Origin: a virus
Length of the DNA stretch: 5,814 nt
Direction: 5' to 3' (one strand)
IMG/VR virus record: IMGVR_UViG_3300045988_000128
Coordinates: 1-5,814 of that record
A program made the translations under genes and the position numbers. This document shows, piece after piece, positions 1-5,814 of this stretch (position 1 is the stretch's first letter; the number at the start of each line of letters is the position of its first letter). The notes under the pieces were generated by a model. It worked only from the letters and a program-made list of their open reading frames with translations, was not told where the DNA came from and searched no databases.

Positions 1-55
1 GAAATGAATATTATGAACTAGGACAGCAAAAACCGTTCGCTTGTATGAGCCTTAA
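1..55. repeat. Direct terminal repeat copy 1 (identical to 5760..5814). It is an assembly signature of a circular genome of about 5,759 bp.
   Basis: 55/55 nt identity between 1..55 and 5760..5814, read directly from the sequence. The repeat may extend further left beyond the window start. Confidence 0.95.
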
Positions 56-335
56 ACCGGGTCTAGGAGATAGATATTACCAAGAGCACAAAGCAGAGAT
101 TTGGAAACAAGGCTACATCCAGTGCACAAACGGAAAGCGCGCACAAATACCACGCTATTATGAAAAAATGATGGAAGCTGAAAACCCACAAAGATTGTGG
201 AGAATTAAGCAGAACAGACAAGCAGCAGCAATAGATACAAACCGTAAAAAATACGAAAACGCAGACTTTGCAGACCAATGCAAGACGAAAGAAAGAGTAA
301 TCAAAAAGCAGATGAAGAAGAAAGGGACACTTTAA
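1..335 (+). CDS. VP4: Replication initiation protein Rep (VP4-like, HUH rolling-circle endonuclease), C-terminal part. It continues from 5075..5814 across the circular junction. The full protein is about 339 aa.
   Basis: Codon phase starts at nt 3 and the stop is TAA at 333..335. The translation ...FACMSLKPGLGDRYY... continues the frame that ends the window (…YVAGYVTKKMYEIDGKKGNEYYELGQQKPFACMSL). The 'MS.KPGLG' block is typical of microvirus Rep C-terminal regions. The tracked ORF 45..335 is only an internal Met within this frame. Confidence 0.88.
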   Translation, partial: NEYYELGQQKPFACMSLKPGLGDRYYQEHKAEIWKQGYIQCTNGKRAQIPRYYEKMMEAENPQRLWRIKQNRQAAAIDTNRKKYENADFADQCKTKERVIKKQMKKKGTL

Positions 336-353
336 CAGTGTCATGGTGTCACC

Positions 354-386
354 TAGCCCAGTACCTATCAAGTAGGCACTGGGCTA
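354..386 (+). other. Long imperfect hairpin immediately downstream of the Rep stop. It is a candidate Rep terminator or structural/origin element.
   Basis: tagcccagt (354-362) pairs with actgggcta (378-386) and ccta (364-367) pairs with tagg (373-376), with one mismatch (363/377) and a 5-nt loop tcaag. There is no downstream T-run. Confidence 0.5.
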
Positions 387-440
387 TATTAGATCAAGCG
401 CCGTATATTATATAACTTGTTGTAGCCGTAGTAGTAGAGA

Positions 441-616
441 CTGTGAAAAAGTTGAAAACAATAAAGATTATCCGTTATCACGTTATTTTTAAGAAAAATT
501 ACTAGTTGAAAGTTTTATTGAAAACTTGTTGAAATGTTGAAAGTTAGTCAAAATGACGAAAAGCATTGTGCAACATTTTGTGGAAAACCTGTTGAAACTG
601 TTGAAACTGTTGAAAA
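441..616 (+). repeat. Iteron-like array of (C)TGTTGAAA(C) direct repeats, ending in three perfect tandem 9-mers CTGTTGAAA at 589..615.
   Basis: TTGAAA cores at 452-457, 506-511, 518-523, 529-534, 537-542, 592-597, 601-606 and 610-615, plus degenerate copies ctgtgaaaaa (441-450) and tgtggaaaac (579-588). Tandem units are 589-597, 598-606 and 607-615. Confidence 0.85.
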
Positions 617-687
617 CGCGCAAGCGCGCAAGGAATGAATTTAGCCGAGCTCCGCGTTCGCTACGCACGGCAAGGCGCTAAAGCGCC
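617..687 (+). promoter_or_regulatory. GC-rich structured island in an otherwise AT-rich intergenic region. It contains a tandem direct repeat CGCGCAAG x2 (617..632), a SacI-type palindrome GAGCTC (647..652) and a GC hairpin ggcgc-taaa-gcgcc (674..687).
   Basis: Seen directly. Local GC is far above the surrounding sequence. The hairpin stem is 5 bp of pure G/C with a 4-nt loop and no T-tract, so it is not a terminator. Confidence 0.5.
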
Positions 688-709
688 ATTCAAGCCAGAA
701 AAATAATTG

Positions 710-738
710 TTGACAAGCAGAAAAAAGAACGCTATAAT
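710..738 (+). promoter_or_regulatory. Sigma70/sigma-A-type promoter with perfect consensus hexamers, driving the zinc-ribbon, peptidase, small-ORF, VP3 and VP1 gene block.
   Basis: TTGACA at 710-715, a 17-nt spacer and TATAAT at 733-738. The predicted TSS is near 745-746. It is followed by RBS AAGGTGGAG (749-757) and ATG at 764. Confidence 0.7.
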
Positions 739-763
739 AGAATCACGAAAGGTGGAGAAAAAC

Positions 764-949
764 ATGAACGAAAAGTCATACAAACACGCCGTCCTAATGA
801 TGCGAATGCCACGAAGTCCGCACCCAGACGGAGACGAACACATTCTAGCATGTCCTAATTGCGGGAGCGGGGAATACCTACTCAATCAGGATGGAGCAGA
901 AAACGCATATTGCGGAAAATGCGGACAGGCCATAGAGTGGAAGGAGTGA
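764..949 (+). CDS. Small Cys4 zinc-ribbon protein (61 aa) of unknown function. It is the first gene after the promoter.
   Basis: ATG 764 lies 6 nt after AAGGTGGAG. The protein is MNEKSYKHAVLMMRMPRSPHPDGDEHILACPNCGSGEYLLNQDGAENAYCGKCGQAIEWKE, with CxxC-x17-CxxC. The tracked ORF start 707 (TTG) overlaps the -35 box and is rejected. The stop is TGA at 947-949. Confidence 0.6.
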   Translation: MNEKSYKHAVLMMRMPRSPHPDGDEHILACPNCGSGEYLLNQDGAENAYCGKCGQAIEWKE

Positions 950-951
950 CT

Positions 952-1344
952 ATGAGCATCGAATGCTATATCATGGACACAGACGCAAACGAAAATGTTG
1001 GAAAATACTTTAAGGTAAAAGAGTTTGCTTGCAAAGACGGAAGTCAAATTGTATTCATTGACGACTACCTATACACCATTCTGGACATCCTAAGAAACAA
1101 GCTGGGAAAACCGGTCATCATCACCAGCGGATACAGAACGCCGGAGTGGAACGCAAAATGCGGAGGAGCAAAATATAGCTACCATATGCGCGGTATGGCT
1201 GCGGACATCCGGGTTAATGGCATGAAACCCAAAGAACTTGCTAACAAACTGAATGGAATTGTCCCGGAAGAATGTGGCATTATCGTATACAAAAGCTGGG
1301 TGCATTTTGATGTGCGCAAAGCAAAATACAGAAAGGGGATATAA
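952..1344 (+). CDS. Peptidase M15 (M15_3/VanY-like zinc D,D- or L,D-peptidase), a putative endolysin. It is 130 aa.
   Basis: ATG 952 lies 5 nt after AAGGAG (941-946). Family-defining motifs are present: F.VKEFAC, SGYRTPEWNAKCGGAKYSYH, the Zn-ligand pattern HMRGMAAD (H-x6-D) and the final His in WVHFDV. The tracked upstream extension (859 TTG) overlaps the previous gene and is rejected. Confidence 0.85.
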   Translation: MSIECYIMDTDANENVGKYFKVKEFACKDGSQIVFIDDYLYTILDILRNKLGKPVIITSGYRTPEWNAKCGGAKYSYHMRGMAADIRVNGMKPKELANKLNGIVPEECGIIVYKSWVHFDVRKAKYRKGI

Positions 1345-1345
1345 A

Positions 1346-1450
1346 ATGGCACTGGTAAGTCTGAAGGACATTAAACAGGCAATCGCAGTAATGCAGAAGA
1401 TTCTCGAAAAACTGGATGAAATCTACCACGCTCTGCACGACAAGGGCTAA
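1346..1450 (+). CDS. Hypothetical small protein (34 aa, predicted helical).
   Basis: ATG 1346 lies 6 nt after AAGGGGA and directly follows the peptidase stop (TAA 1342-1344). The protein is MALVSLKDIKQAIAVMQKILEKLDEIYHALHDKG. It is too short for homology inference. Confidence 0.4.
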   Translation: MALVSLKDIKQAIAVMQKILEKLDEIYHALHDKG

Positions 1451-1465
1451 GAAAGGAGAACAGCA

Positions 1466-1690
1466 ATGATCAAATCATGGAACGTACGCGACCAGACCAA
1501 AGAAGCACTGGAAGAACTTCTAAGACGAAAGTACAAGGAGATTGACGGCAACTACAAAATGTTGAAAAAAATCTCAAACATCAACGATGCAAAGAAGCTG
1601 CTAGATGAAATCTGGGAGATGAAGAGCTTTGCAAACGCAATCGAGATGGAGCTAATCAGAAGGGAGTACAACGATGGCACGACATCGTAA
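1466..1690 (+). CDS. Hypothetical protein (74 aa, helical/coiled-coil-like).
   Basis: ATG 1466 lies 7 nt after AAGGAG (1453-1458). The ORF is intact and I recognise no motif. Confidence 0.5.
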   Translation: MIKSWNVRDQTKEALEELLRRKYKEIDGNYKMLKKISNINDAKKLLDEIWEMKSFANAIEMELIRREYNDGTTS

Positions 1691-1796
1691 GAAGATGAAC
1701 GGCGCAAAAGACCGCCGTATGTTCAACGTAACCGCACGCAAAACCAAAGCTATCAATCTCAGTCAGAAGCCCATGCGTGGTGGCATCCGACTGTAA
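1674..1796 (+). CDS. Small highly basic protein (40 aa), a putative DNA-binding/packaging protein analogous to microvirus J / gokushovirus VP8.
   Basis: ATG 1674 lies 7 nt after AAGGGAG (1660-1666). The protein is MARHRKKMNGAKDRRMFNVTARKTKAINLSQKPMRGGIRL, with 13 of 40 residues Arg/Lys. It overlaps the 3' end of the previous ORF by 17 nt. It is absent from the ORF track because of the size cutoff. Confidence 0.6.
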   Translation: MARHRKKMNGAKDRRMFNVTARKTKAINLSQKPMRGGIRL

Positions 1797-1814
1797 GAGA
1801 AAAGGAGCAAAACA

Positions 1815-2054
1815 ATGAAACACAACTACTACGGAATCTGGGACAGTGTGGCAAAGTGCTACGCATGGGTCGGTGAAAGCAAGAACGATGCAACCTTTGC
1901 ACGTATGTGCAATGTGATGGAAAAGGACGAAAAAACCTTCATTGGGCAGAGTCCGCAGGACTACACCGGCTTCAAGTTGGCAATCTTTGAAGACGAAAAC
2001 GGAACGTTTACGAACGACACGGAAAAAGTATGGGAGGGCAAGCCGAATGAATAA
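1815..2054 (+). CDS. Hypothetical protein (79 aa).
   Basis: ATG 1815 lies 7 nt after AAGGAG (1802-1807). The protein is MKHNYYGIWDSVAKCYAWVGESKNDATFARMC.... Its stop overlaps the next start (ATGAATAA). The pattern resembles a small conserved microvirus ORF, but that is recollection only. Confidence 0.5.
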   Translation: MKHNYYGIWDSVAKCYAWVGESKNDATFARMCNVMEKDEKTFIGQSPQDYTGFKLAIFEDENGTFTNDTEKVWEGKPNE

Positions 2055-2454
2055 ACGATACGAGGAAGGGCGAGAGCCCTTCTTTTCGAATACAGGCGAG
2101 AACGAACGAAAGCAGTACGTCTGGGCAAAAGACGAAAACGGCAAAGAATACCTTCAAGAGACAGCGCCTATCGACATTCAGGCTGAAATCGAAAGCTATG
2201 CAGACGAGTGCGATATTAAAAACATCGTGCGGAAAGCAAGTTTCGACCCGGAATTTCTGAAGAACCTGTCACAAGGCGCATTAACCACAGAGGAAACACC
2301 GCTCGTAGACATCACGGAATTCCCGCAGAATATCCACGAGTATCACCAGATGATAGCAACGGCACAAGCAAAAGCAATGCAGCTGGCAAAGCTACAGGAG
2401 ATGGCAAAAACAGAGCCTAAACCGAAAACCGAAGCAAAGGAGGAAGAACAGTGA
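2047..2454 (+). CDS. VP3: Putative internal scaffolding protein (VP3-like), 135 aa, with an acidic Lys/Glu-rich C-terminus.
   Basis: ATG 2047 follows GGGAGGG (2031-2037). It sits immediately upstream of VP1 and overlaps it. The motif ...YADECDIKNIVRKASF... resembles the conserved D-I-N-x-I block of gokushovirus VP3 scaffold proteins. The tracked start 1942 lies inside the previous gene and is rejected. Confidence 0.6.
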   Translation: MNKRYEEGREPFFSNTGENERKQYVWAKDENGKEYLQETAPIDIQAEIESYADECDIKNIVRKASFDPEFLKNLSQGALTTEETPLVDITEFPQNIHEYHQMIATAQAKAMQLAKLQEMAKTEPKPKTEAKEEEQ

Positions 2455-4145
2455 ACAGAAACAACGAAAGACACTTTCTGAATGTGCCACAGATGCACAC
2501 AAGCAGAACGCGTTTCAACCGTGACCAGACGATTTTGACCACGTTCGACAGCGGCAAGCTTATCCCGTTTTTCGTGGACGAAGTGCTACCGGGCGACACT
2601 TTCCAAGTCGACACAAGCGCTATCATCCGAATGACCACGCCAAAGTATCCGGTCATGGATGATGCATTCATAGACTTCTACTACTTCTATTGTCCAAACA
2701 GAATCTTGTATGATGACTTCAAGTATTTCATGGGAGAAGTAGAAGACAAGCCATGGGTACCGAGCAAAGAATACAAAATGCCGCAAATAGTATGTTTTGG
2801 AAATGAAGCAGAACCACAGCCACTCGAAAAAAGCATTCTGGACTATATGGGAGTGCCAACAAAAATCAAAAAACAATTTAGCATAAACGCACTGCCAGTG
2901 CGAGCCTATGTAAGAATCTGGAATGAATACTTCAGAGATGAAAACGTAGACAACAAAGCAACGCTAGTAACGGCTGGATTAGATCAAGCATACAGAGACA
3001 CAAACAAAGATGAAGACCTAGACAAAATCCTTGAAGAAGCACACGAAGGCGGACGGTGCCTACCTGTAAACAAGTTCCATGACTACTTCACAAGCTGTCT
3101 GCCATATCCGCAAAGAGGGCCGGAAATTTCATTACCGTTAACAGGAAATGCAGCGGTAAACCTGTTTACAGACCAAGAGCTAACAGAAAAAATGTCAACG
3201 GGTATCGATGGCGAAATCTACCTGAACAGCACAGTAACAGGAAACAACACATCGGTACCGAGGATGTTAAACTGGCCAACCGCGTCAAACACCTCACATC
3301 CGGTTCTAGTAAACGGAGCACCAAGCGATACAGACGCAAGCAAGTACCGCGCAGGATTCTTAGGTGCAGACCTGGCAAGTGTAACCGCAACAACAATCAA
3401 CGACTTGCGAAATGCTGTTGCAGTACAGCAGTATTACGAAGCACTAGCGCGTGGTGGCAGCAGATACCGCGAACAGGTACAGTCACTGTGGAACGTCACA
3501 ATCAGCGACAAAACGGTACAGATTCCTGAATATTTGGGCGGTGGACGCTATCACGTCAACATGAATCAGATTATCCAGACCAGCGGACAGCAGAGCAACA
3601 CAGATACACCCATCGGCGAAACTGGCGCAATGTCAGTAACGCCGGTAAATGAAAGCAGTTTCACAAAATCGTTCGAAGAGCACGGCTTTGTAATCGGTGT
3701 GATGTGTATTCGTCATAACCACAGCTACCAGCAGGGACTTGAACGTTTCTGGAGCAGAAAAGACAGGCTCGACTACTACGTGCCGCAGTTTGCAAACCTT
3801 GGCGAACAGCCTGTAAAGAAAAAGGAAATCATGCTGACCGGTGACGCATCAGACGAAGAAACTTTCGGCTATCAGGAAGCATGGGCAGACTACCGGATGA
3901 AACCAAACCGTGTAAGCGGACTTATGAGAAGCAACGCAACGGGAACGCTGGATTTCTGGCATTATGCAGACAACTATTCAGCAGTGCCGACACTGTCACA
4001 AGGCTGGATGGTAGAAGGAAAGAGCGAAATTGCAAGAACGCTCATCGTTCAAGACGAACCGCAGTTCTTCGGAGCAATCCGAGTAGCAAACAAAACTACC
4101 CGCTGTATGCCGTTGTACAGTGTACCGGGGCTGAACAAATTGTAA
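2451..4145 (+). CDS. VP1: Major capsid protein VP1 (phiX174 F-protein homologue), 564 aa.
   Basis: GTG start 2451 lies 6 nt after AAGGAGGA (2437-2444), in a GTGA overlap with the VP3 stop. The N-terminus MNRNNERHFLNVPQ...RTRFNRDQTILTTFDSGKLIPFFVDEVLPGDTF matches the highly conserved microvirus VP1 N-terminal signature. A long uninterrupted ORF ends at TAA 4143-4145. An alternative start at ATG 2493 would lose the conserved N-terminus. Confidence 0.92.
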   Translation: MNRNNERHFLNVPQMHTSRTRFNRDQTILTTFDSGKLIPFFVDEVLPGDTFQVDTSAIIRMTTPKYPVMDDAFIDFYYFYCPNRILYDDFKYFMGEVEDKPWVPSKEYKMPQIVCFGNEAEPQPLEKSILDYMGVPTKIKKQFSINALPVRAYVRIWNEYFRDENVDNKATLVTAGLDQAYRDTNKDEDLDKILEEAHEGGRCLPVNKFHDYFTSCLPYPQRGPEISLPLTGNAAVNLFTDQELTEKMSTGIDGEIYLNSTVTGNNTSVPRMLNWPTASNTSHPVLVNGAPSDTDASKYRAGFLGADLASVTATTINDLRNAVAVQQYYEALARGGSRYREQVQSLWNVTISDKTVQIPEYLGGGRYHVNMNQIIQTSGQQSNTDTPIGETGAMSVTPVNESSFTKSFEEHGFVIGVMCIRHNHSYQQGLERFWSRKDRLDYYVPQFANLGEQPVKKKEIMLTGDASDEETFGYQEAWADYRMKPNRVSGLMRSNATGTLDFWHYADNYSAVPTLSQGWMVEGKSEIARTLIVQDEPQFFGAIRVANKTTRCMPLYSVPGLNKL

Positions 4146-4156
4146 GAAAGGAGGAA

Positions 4157-4182
4157 GCCCGGGCAAAACCCGGGCTATTTTT
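4157..4182 (+). terminator. Rho-independent terminator or attenuator between VP1 and VP2.
   Basis: gcccggg (4157-4163), loop caaaa, cccgggc (4169-4175), then tattttt (4176-4182). The stem is GC-rich and perfect, 7 bp (8 bp with the flanking A-T pair). Confidence 0.7.
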
Positions 4183-4184
4183 AA

Positions 4185-5078
4185 ATGTCAATACTAGGAG
4201 CAATCGGAGCAGCCGGAAAAGCAGTAGGTGGATGGCTTGCAAGTAATCCACAAGTAGTAACAAGCGCACTGACGTTAGCAGGGAAAGGACTATCAAGCCA
4301 ATTCGGGCAAACGTCAGACAGCCAAAGCAGCGGATGGAATCAAAGCCAAAGCCAAGGCGCTGGCACAAGCTCGTCAAGCAGCGAGGGCGGCACAAACGAC
4401 AAGCAAATCATGGAATACCTAGATAAGTTCTATAGTTGGCAAGGCGGGCAGAACGCTTTCCAAAGCAAAACAAACCGGCAAAATATGCTTATGCAGATGG
4501 GCTACAACACGCTAGGAGCAATCCAGCAAGGCGTATATAACGCAATTGAACGAAACACGGCAATGCAGTACAACAGCGCAGAAGCACTTGCAAACAGGAA
4601 CTTTCAAGAGCGCATGAGCAGTACGGCATACCAAAGAGCTGTAGAAGATATGCGGAAAGCCGGACTTAACCCTATCCTGGCATACGCAAACGGCGGTGCA
4701 AGCACACCGGGCGGCTCAGGAGCAACAATCACAGGTGCAAGTATGGGTATGCCATCAGCAAGCGCACTGGGCGTATCTACAATGAATGGAAATGTGCCAA
4801 ACAGTTATTACAGCCGGTCAGAAAGTCAGGCACAATGGTATCAGCTTGCAGAAGCCGTGGGAAGTCAGCTAAGCACAAGCCACAGCAGCCCAACAGCACT
4901 TGTAAACGACCTGTTAAAAACATACAAAGCCATGGAAAAGACGGAAGATACCGTACCGGGAGCAGCCGGGGGCGGTGGACGAAACAAACCGAAAACAGGA
5001 GAAAGCAGAGAAATGAAGCCACAAAACAAAACGGGAAATTATGGAGAAAAAAGAAAGCCAGGTGATTATTTAAGGTGA
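4185..5078 (+). CDS. VP2: Minor capsid / DNA pilot protein VP2 (phiX174 H-like), 297 aa.
   Basis: It is the first codon after the in-frame stop at 4182-4184. The N-terminus is glycine-rich and hydrophobic (MSILGAIGAAGKAVGGWLAS). There is a Ser/Gln/Gly low-complexity linker and the conserved block NFQERMSSTAYQRAVEDMRKAGLNPILAY typical of gokushovirus-type VP2. The SD (AAAGGAGGA 4147-4155) lies upstream of the terminator hairpin. Confidence 0.85.
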   Translation: MSILGAIGAAGKAVGGWLASNPQVVTSALTLAGKGLSSQFGQTSDSQSSGWNQSQSQGAGTSSSSSEGGTNDKQIMEYLDKFYSWQGGQNAFQSKTNRQNMLMQMGYNTLGAIQQGVYNAIERNTAMQYNSAEALANRNFQERMSSTAYQRAVEDMRKAGLNPILAYANGGASTPGGSGATITGASMGMPSASALGVSTMNGNVPNSYYSRSESQAQWYQLAEAVGSQLSTSHSSPTALVNDLLKTYKAMEKTEDTVPGAAGGGGRNKPKTGESREMKPQNKTGNYGEKRKPGDYLR

Positions 5079-5814
5079 GTTGTTACAAGCCACTAATTAG
5101 GCTGTACAATCCCGAAAACAAAGAAATAAGCGGGCGGGTGTATTCACTCGCCCGCTTTTCAGAATTATCGGGGAGACAGCTAAAATATGAAGATTTGATG
5201 TACAGAAAAGACATCATGTTGATACCATGCGGGCAATGTATAGGATGCAGAATCAGGCAACGTGAAGACTGGACAACACGCATAGAATTAGAAGCTAGAG
5301 ACTATCCGAAAGAAGAAGTATGGTTTATTACACTAACCTATGATGACGACCATGTACCGGGAATGATAGTTAAGACAGGCGAAATAATGCGAAAGGTACA
5401 ATACGTCTGGAAACCGGGTGAAGAGCGTCCTGAAAGCGTCCAAACGTTACTGTATACTGACGTTCAGAAGTTCTTAAAACGTCTCAGAAAGGCTTACAGG
5501 GGCAAATTACGCTATTTCGTAGCAGGAGAATACGGAGAGCAAACAGCAAGACCGCATTACCACATGATACTGTACGGATGGCAACCGACAGACCTAGAGA
5601 ACCTATACAAGATATACCACAACGGATACTATACAAGCAAATGGCTGGCAGAACTATGGGGCATGGGTCAAATACAGATAGCACAAGCAGTACCAGAAAC
5701 ATATAGATACGTTGCAGGGTATGTAACCAAAAAAATGTATGAAATAGACGGAAAGAAGGGAAATGAATATTATGAACTAGGACAGCAAAAACCGTTCGCT
5801 TGTATGAGCCTTAA
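5075..5814 (+). CDS. VP4: Replication initiation protein Rep (VP4-like, HUH endonuclease), N-terminal part. It is truncated by window linearisation and continues at 1..335.
   Basis: GTG 5075 lies 9 nt after AGGTGA (5060-5065), in a GTGA overlap with the VP2 stop (TGA 5076-5078). The in-frame stop at 5063-5065 excludes any earlier start. The translation is MSCYKPLIRLYNPENK...PCGQCIGCRIRQ...WFITLTYDD (motif 1)...ARPHYHMILYG (HUH motif 2)...YRYVAGYVTKK (catalytic Tyr motif 3). The alternative ATG 5198 would delete the conserved N-terminus. Confidence 0.9.
   Translation, partial: MSCYKPLIRLYNPENKEISGRVYSLARFSELSGRQLKYEDLMYRKDIMLIPCGQCIGCRIRQREDWTTRIELEARDYPKEEVWFITLTYDDDHVPGMIVKTGEIMRKVQYVWKPGEERPESVQTLLYTDVQKFLKRLRKAYRGKLRYFVAGEYGEQTARPHYHMILYGWQPTDLENLYKIYHNGYYTSKWLAELWGMGQIQIAQAVPETYRYVAGYVTKKMYEIDGKKGNEYYELGQQKPFACMSL
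5760..5814. repeat. Direct terminal repeat copy 2 (identical to 1..55).
   Basis: Exact 55-nt identity with the window start, verified base by base. Confidence 0.95.

Follow-up and report, generated by a model that had tools for sequence, protein, structure and literature searches.

Gokushoviruses are among the most abundant gut phages, and to our knowledge a complementary-strand origin has so far been defined for none of them. The best-known sites of this kind are those of the ssDNA coliphages: the n′/PriA primosome hairpin of phiX174, the three-hairpin DnaG site of G4, where several short hairpins lie within about 140 nt, and the minus origin of M13/f1 (RNA polymerase). A start site for the complementary strand is needed by every microvirus, and in other Microviridae negative-strand initiation has been linked to intergenic hairpins that are conserved and compensated, tentatively and with the explicit statement that this role is not certified (PMC9865509). 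The single-strand origins (ssos) of plasmids are orientation-specific, flexible in position, exchangeable and host-limiting (PMC5703833; PMC4595007), and one of them, sso1 of ICEBs1, has been tested by a plasmid ssDNA-accumulation assay (PMC4595007). Here we describe a GC-rich intergenic island of gokushoviruses that is a candidate for such a site.

The window, the whole 5,814-nt stretch of DNA analysed here (IMG/VR record IMGVR_UViG_3300045988_000128, positions 1 to 5,814), has the same 55 bases at its start (1–55) and at its end (5760–5814). This terminal direct repeat indicates that the window is a circularly permuted complete genome, circular and about 5.76 kb long, with the Rep gene split by the window ends. 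Every long ORF lies on the + strand, and the gokushovirus relatives recovered by BLAST, at 72–82% identity to the window, come from pig and human gut. The features that define the locus are the following.

5075..335, across the junction, + strand: Rep/VP4 gene
336–763: intergenic region after Rep, 428 nt
354..386, − strand: conserved hairpin just past the Rep stop, with loop ACTTGATA; candidate Rep nick site (viral-strand origin)
405..615, no strand assigned: AT-rich module with GTTGAAA repeats, about 210 nt with eight or so repeats (the 'iterons' of an earlier note on this DNA)
616..700, no strand assigned: conserved island, ACGCGC...TTCAAGCCA, about 85 nt, with boundaries from the alignment with relatives
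710–738, + strand: main promoter TTGACA-17-TATAAT, 12/12 consensus positions, 10 nt downstream of the island
2451–4145, + strand: VP1 gene
4156–4176: canonical terminator between VP1 and VP2

Beyond the intergenic region the order is a small zinc-ribbon ORF, an M15 peptidase, small ORFs, VP1, the terminator and VP2. The promoter at 710–738 is the sole strong promoter found by a scan of the genome; judged by this promoter and the Shine–Dalgarno sites the host looks Firmicutes-like. Within the N-terminal coding part of Rep, at 5130–5160, lies another GC hairpin followed by a T-run (AGCGGGCGGGTGTATTCACTCGCCCGCTTTTC), and a Termite-leu Rfam match at 5125–5210 is weak and below threshold (29 bits against a gathering score of 51).

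The earlier note had proposed the GC-rich block as a candidate complementary-strand priming site on the strength of features seen in the window alone. These motifs are present: a tandem motif, CGCGCAAGCGCGCAAG, at 617–632, the hexamer GAGCTC at 647–652, and the perfect GC hairpin GGCGC-TAAA-GCGCC at 674–687. The block is also as GC-rich relative to its AT-rich surroundings as had been described (GC 0.60 in 617–700, against 0.34 and 0.32 in the flanks), and it contains 12 CpG where 4.4 are expected. Folding as ssDNA, a check suggested at the time, lent no support, since the single sequence of 600–705 folds no better than its dinucleotide shuffles on either strand (z = −0.09 on the + strand and −1.05 on the − strand). 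The stems described below are only 4–7 bp long, and with a single-sequence fold that is not significant, thermodynamics cannot carry the argument for structure. The region 600–710 has no match in Rfam 15 even at E ≤ 10, and a tRNA/tmRNA scan with ARAGORN found nothing in the island. The motif evidence from the single sequence is not beyond chance; the comparative evidence is well beyond it.

The island is found in 12 GenBank gokushoviruses at 80–90% identity, and a pattern scan of IMG/VR added at least 118 further genomes; its carriers in IMG/VR number more than 140, with one copy per genome. It is also carried by 19 of 25 extra genomes that were fetched by Rep similarity alone. The alignment of relatives has sharp edges, starting at ACGCGC and ending near TTCAAAC, with 1-nt internal indels, and a covariance model matches the window at 607–702 with 97.8 bits. 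The island has the orientation of the long ORFs in 119/119 genomes, and its slot never changes: it lies after Rep and before the main promoter and is never flipped. Mean pairwise identity is 0.83 in the island and 0.75 at the third codon positions of Rep, the adjacent gene; this higher identity, combined with variation in length (84 and 85 nt, from 1-nt indels), means that the island is non-coding and under selection. A small ORF is ruled out by the indels, by stop codons and by the two lengths.

No chromosomal copy was found among 185,579 bacterial and archaeal species genomes, which rules out a host att, dif or tRNA-derived site; the sole match is a free microvirus contig in a MAG. This 5.7-kb contig (L130, CAVKUS010000079.1) is binned in a MAG named Bacteroides sp. 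CAG:545, probably by mis-binning, because its strong Shine–Dalgarno sites and TTGACA/TATAAT promoter better fit a Firmicutes-like host. A 10.9-kb record (L071/L148, IMGVR_UViG_3300045988_007630) holds two non-identical sets of VP2 and Rep and one exact island-pattern match only; its gene content suggests a chimera assembled from two related microviruses and not a prophage. In many relatives TTGACA begins about 12 nt past the island end. About half of the relatives (L002, L017, L028 and others) have an extra 60–90 nt at this point, which starts with CAAAGGAGCAAAACC and carries GGTTACAA direct repeats (GGTTAC repeats); the window is without this insert, which may be an operator region.

The structure of the island was assessed in an alignment (A1) of 121 unique island sequences, and the pairs of its two larger stems were counted in 123 unique sequences. 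RNAalifold recovered two hairpins from the 121 sequences. By explicit pair count 95.4% of cells are paired, compared with 19–44% when the partners are slid, and the covariation score of 0.134, compared with 0.074 for shuffled alignments, was attained in 0 of 500 shuffles. The two hairpins, P2 and P3, and a smaller one at the 5′ end, P0, are placed in the window as follows.

617..630, no strand assigned: P0, 5′ mini-hairpin, GCGC (618–621)-AAGC-GCGC (626–629) in the window
644..671, no strand assigned: P2, central hairpin, 644–650 with 665–671, loop of 14–16 nt
674..687, no strand assigned: P3, hairpin GGCGC-TAAA-GCGCC

The stem of P2 is built from the pairs G644–C671, C645–G670, C646–G669, G647–C668, G649–C666 and C650–G665, with an A648·A667 mismatch. 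Among the 123 unique sequences, pair 649–666 is GC in 81 and AT in 42, pair 650–665 is CG in 51 and TA in 72, and pair 644–671 is GC in 118 and TA in 5, with not one broken or wobble cell at these three covarying positions. The hexamer GAGCTC lies within this stem and varies with it (GAATTC, GAGTTC, GAACTC). The P2 loop, TCCGC...GCTMC, is conserved in sequence. P3 has an invariant GCGC/GCGC stem, seen also in relatives fetched by Rep similarity without any sequence pattern, and a loop that varies (TAAA, AAAA, TGAA, AAA); its outer pair, 674–687, is GC in 87 sequences, AT in 14, GT in 17, AC in 3 and AA in 2. The conservation of the stems with compensatory change that the earlier note had named as a check is borne out, in P2 and in the outer pair of P3. 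An additional closing stem, GAATGG/CCATTC, around P2 and P3 was rejected, with only 79% of cells paired and a lack of consistent covariation.

P0 is the tandem CGCGCAAG of the earlier note. That sequence is confined to the small lineage of the window, and most relatives have ACGCGCACAGCGC. The corresponding hairpins are GCGC-ACA-GCGC in most relatives and CGCGC-AA-GCGCG in the lineage of the window; one genome (L075) has the compensatory form CTCGC-AA-GCGAG, and in three (L110, L128, L164) P0 is swapped for an unrelated 11-bp hairpin, CCATTTTCG[T/G]G...C[A/C]CGAAAATGG. Judged by these alleles, it is the hairpin that is kept at the P0 position, and not its sequence. Of the motifs first noticed, all exist in the window and the stem of the GC hairpin is kept among relatives, but neither the tandem CGCGCAAG nor GAGCTC as a palindrome is conserved.

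Stem alleles lie scattered across the whole-genome tree, with 24–25 Fitch steps per pair against 34–38 for random assignment, probably as a result of recombination. Because recombination confounds tree counts of compensatory events, the claim of covariation is limited to at least five distinct double substitutions. Comparison across genomes thus identifies the island as a real, folded, non-coding and orientation-locked element that is selected for its structure.

The neighbourhood of the island is less constant. The AT-rich module is conserved in about 97 phage records. It adjoins the island in + orientation, the arrangement of the window, in 68 genomes; it is inverted and on the other side of Rep in 36 genomes, in which the Rep stop codon marks the start of the island; and it is inverted but still adjacent to the island in 5. 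Altogether 41 of 110 genomes (about 40%) have the module inverted, relocated or both, with the island fixed. The idea of an ori-like module, which rested on the adjacency of island and iterons, finds no support in this comparison. The arrangements indicate that the AT-rich module is a separable cassette that would work in either orientation. When inverted across Rep it lies between the bidirectional terminator after VP2 and the start of Rep, where it occupies the expected place of a Rep promoter. Alternating CGCGCACGCGCGC runs, quasi-palindromic and 30–45 nt long, flank the module in many relatives (upstream of the module in L142, L149, L150, L166, L169 and L176, and upstream of the inverted module in L040 and L028); they resemble the 5′ hairpin of the island and could be recombination substrates for module inversion.

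The island is absent from two genomes, L150 and L176, in which Rep is 89–91% identical to that of the window, and from the distant relatives L180–L183. Other GC-rich multi-hairpin inserts fill the slot in these genomes.

L150, about 3390–3520: alternative cassette, ssDNA fold z = −6.1
L176, about 2840–2950: alternative cassette, ssDNA fold z = −5.2
L180–L183, just downstream of the module: alternative cassettes

Between the island and these cassettes no homology was detectable (best E 0.05, with partial alignments). The cassettes of L181–L183 share GTCATGC...CGYACGGCGC-NCC-GCGCC...GCATGAC, of which the CGYACGGC word and the GGCGC/GCGCC hairpin are common to these cassettes and the island. By these comparisons the slot is conserved and its occupant exchangeable.

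How the island could act depends on which strand is packaged, and here the hairpin at 354–386 is informative. On the − strand it has a perfect 14-bp stem (z = −5.1) and a loop that contains a phiX174/pC194-type core at 366–373; it is present in 110 of 145 genomes, on the − strand every time. Distant relatives have wholly different, fully compensated stems around an invariant loop, TATCAAG(TA), which GGTGA adjoins. A variable, compensated stem with an unchanged loop is the signature of a Rep origin, which makes this hairpin the nick-site candidate. The mapped origin of phiX174 has the same core, there on the coding strand, and hairpins of the same architecture, with GGTGA after them, occur in Chp2 and SpV4, again on the coding strand (ssDNA fold of Chp2, z = −5.9). 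In many relatives a T-rich tail (GGGCTTTTGTCGTCT) follows the hairpin on the + strand, and from this layout the hairpin may serve both as viral-strand origin and as terminator of the Rep mRNA. In a subset of genomes (L176, L149 and others) the loop motif recurs (TCTATCAAGTAG) some 50 nt downstream of this hairpin and outside any hairpin; the additional copy may be a second Rep recognition site.

The base composition of four-fold degenerate sites on the coding strand points in the same direction. The window (T 13%, A 50%) is the mirror image of phiX174 (T 58%, A 9%), SpV4 (T 65%, A 28%) and Chp2 (T 50%, A 25%), and the AT skew of the coding strand is at least +0.31 in all 144 island-bearing genomes. 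T-richness is a known signature of ssDNA phages (PMC3278643). phiMH2K is also A-rich, with its CTTGATA on the non-coding strand only. The nick-type loop on the − strand and the A-rich rather than T-rich codon skew together suggest that in this clade it is the non-coding strand that is nicked and packaged, so that the + strand, taken as the virion strand in the earlier note, is probably not the packaged one. A literature search found no report of non-coding-strand packaging in this clade.

With packaging of the − strand, any priming signal would have to work in the form of the reverse complement of the island; with packaging of the + strand, the picture of the earlier note would stand, as a hypothesis. 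The island itself gives indications of strand that are weak and in conflict. The variable P2 pairs are all Watson–Crick, so P2 forms equally well on the − strand, and 105 of the 121 sequences have a slightly more favourable MFE on the − strand. The sole wobble-informative pair, 674–687, shows G·T 17 times against A·C 3 times in the coding-strand reading, an excess that favours folding in the + sense, which would mean RNA if the − strand is packaged.

The best-supported single hypothesis, which we put forward tentatively and short of an even chance, is that the island is a complementary-strand initiation signal. It would be a cassette of two to three short hairpins (P0, P2 and P3) acting in single-stranded nucleic acid; on the packaged ssDNA circle it would mark the start of the complementary strand, and the starter would be a host enzyme, whether a primase, a primosome or RNA polymerase. 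Since both the nick-type hairpin and the codon skew indicate packaging of the non-coding strand, the island would probably be active as the reverse complement of 616–700, about 230–330 nt 5′ of the nick on that strand. That the signal is read as ssDNA and not RNA, on which strand it is read, that a host protein binds it and that priming starts at the island are all matters that we infer from sequence comparison.

Two general properties of single-strand origins can be looked for in the alignment. The island is gene-sense in all 119 genomes and fixed in orientation relative to the 354–386 hairpin (− strand in 110 genomes), and its secondary structure is selected, as seen in the covariation of P2 and P3 and the swaps of P0, with z-scores that are not significant. 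The occurrence of unrelated, strongly folding cassettes in the same slot, together with the orientation lock, matches the described behaviour of plasmid ssos. The priming-site proposal thus stands in part: the element is real, non-coding, structured, orientation-locked and present once per genome, and priming is its best candidate function, tentative as that is, whereas the link to the iterons is not supported, a nick site in the hairpin loop is unlikely and the + strand is probably not the virion strand. Priming could instead take place at the hairpin at 354–386 or in the AT-rich module. A broader scheme, which we think unlikely as a whole, would make the clade 'negative-sense' Microviridae in which 354–386 (ACTTG/ATA loop, − strand) is the viral-strand origin and the reverse complement of the island is the second-strand origin, one of several interchangeable, host-specific cassettes.

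The main rival, unlikely in our estimate and yet the one to be taken most seriously, is a function in RNA, at the 3′ end of the transcript of Rep (VP4). The element would be a terminator of non-canonical type or an insulator that keeps transcription from reaching the main promoter, or else a 3′ structure that stabilises or regulates Rep mRNA. This rival draws on the 36 genomes in which the island begins at the Rep stop, where it would lie within the 3′ untranslated region of the Rep mRNA with no other hairpin before the promoter. At least three T occur in the 5 nt after P3 in 21 of 38 Rep-abutting genomes, compared with 13 of 76 with the arrangement of the window (Fisher p = 6e-5, not phylogeny-corrected). 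The excess of G·T at pair 674–687 is in the mRNA sense, and if the non-coding strand is packaged, the coding-sense strand would be single-stranded only as RNA. The P3 stem, however, has only 5 bp and is followed in the window and most genomes by CATTCAA, without a U-tract and without a terminator call. An intrinsic terminator was rejected: the scan made no call, the tail in the window is CATTCAA, and at least three T stand in the first 5 nt in only 34 of 114 classified copies. In the arrangement of the window, a far stronger hairpin with a T-rich tail (354–386) already follows Rep, and the island may be untranscribed. A terminator role also leaves the conserved P2 loop sequence and P0 unexplained; the count of G·U intermediates in P2 (0 of 123) is unusual for RNA helices, and the Rfam search gave no match.

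We judge it improbable that the island is a double-stranded regulatory site for the promoter, such as an operator, a UP-like element or an insulator, to which a protein of the host or the phage would bind, possibly with the island extruded as a cruciform. In the window and in many relatives the island ends 10–12 nt short of the −35 box, its loops are conserved in sequence, and the GCGC-N4-GCGC arms are like half-sites for a dimer; but base-changing Watson–Crick covariation at three stem positions fits a folded strand and not a protein that reads a duplex. In about half of the relatives, moreover, the 60–90 nt with GGTTAC repeats part the island from the promoter, and neither the orientation lock nor the swaps for unrelated hairpin cassettes would be expected of an operator.

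Very improbable, in turn, is a neutral or selfish GC-rich cassette that recombines among co-infecting gokushoviruses and has no function for the phage. The sharp boundaries, the presence/absence polymorphism among near-identical genomes, the similar GCGC mini-hairpins at both island ends and the frequent recombination indicated by scattered stem alleles (about 24 Fitch steps per pair) would all suit such an element, but not the zero broken P2 pairs in 123 sequences, nor conservation above that of synonymous sites, nor a single copy that is always in one slot and one orientation and is found in no host genome. Least credible of all is a viral-strand origin with Rep nicking in an island loop, as the earlier note had suggested for the GC hairpin: proximity to the Rep gene and hairpins with conserved loops speak for it, but 616–700 contains no CTTGATA-like core (CTTG/ATA), L150 and L176 lack the island despite about 90% Rep identity, and the hairpin at 354–386, whose ACTTGATA loop is invariant across distant relatives and which matches hairpins of Chp2 and SpV4 and the mapped origin core of phiX174, is the far better candidate.

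Read as a complementary-strand initiation signal, the island offers a concrete, well-bounded candidate for a second-strand origin, in which the P2 alleles are natural compensatory mutants and the alternative cassettes in near-identical genomes are natural 'swap' controls. Should the cassettes prove host-specific, as plasmid ssos are, they might help to mark the host range of microviruses that have not been cultivated. For this clade the wrong strand may have been taken as the virion strand, in which case the reading of ssDNA structure, mutation bias and replication signals would be affected in thousands of metagenomic Microviridae genomes.

Among known elements, Rho-independent terminators share with the island a GC-rich hairpin (P3) downstream of a gene and, in some relatives, a short T-rich tail. 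They differ in that the island has a 5-bp stem, no U-tract in the window and most copies, and additional conserved hairpins and loops; the canonical terminator at 4156–4176 looks quite different. The complementary-strand origins of the coliphages are, like the island, intergenic, non-coding and orientation-dependent sets of hairpins in the small circular genomes of ssDNA phages. The island has no detectable sequence similarity to them, however; its stems are shorter and thermodynamically unexceptional, and it may be active on the non-coding strand. The hairpins of reekeekee- and roodoodooviruses (PMC9865509) are likewise intergenic and conserved at the nucleotide level, with compensatory substitutions and a tentative link to the negative strand, whereas the island belongs to another subfamily, differs in position and sequence, was compared in a much larger sample (more than 140 genomes), and has several hairpins in a slot with alternative cassettes.

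Membership in the ssoA family was suggested by the likeness of TTTAGCCGAG in the window to the RSB motif TTATGCCGAG, but the two share a GCCGAG core and a TT prefix only. An ssoA is defined by an RSB (5′-TTATGCCGAGAAAATTT-3′) in the loop-distal stem, a CS-6 (5′-TAGCGT-3′) in the apical loop and one imperfect hairpin of about 160 nt. Smith–Waterman comparison of 121 islands with palA (a 157-nt query verified at 100% identity to pC194) gave a mean score of 15.6, against 16.1 for dinucleotide shuffles, and a best score of 23, the 99th percentile of single shuffles. CS-6 is absent from the coding strand of the island, and on the − strand the P2 loop reads TAGCG(T/A) only in the GCTAC copies (about 45%) and GGAGCG in the rest. 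The architecture differs too, with one long imperfect hairpin in ssoA (palA fold, −34.6 kcal/mol) against two or three separate short hairpins within about 85 nt in the island, whose stems are shorter than those of characterised ssos. A covariance model of the island (R1) has no match in pT181 or pE194 at E ≤ 1. With chance-level similarity to palA, a CS-6 that is on the wrong strand and not conserved, a different architecture and the null result for R1, membership in ssoA was rejected. On sequence criteria the island is thus analogous to the known sso families and not a member of one. What it shares with ssoA (palA) and other ssos of Gram-positive rolling-circle plasmids is a locked orientation, a cassette-like organisation, a flexible position with respect to rep and exchange between close relatives.
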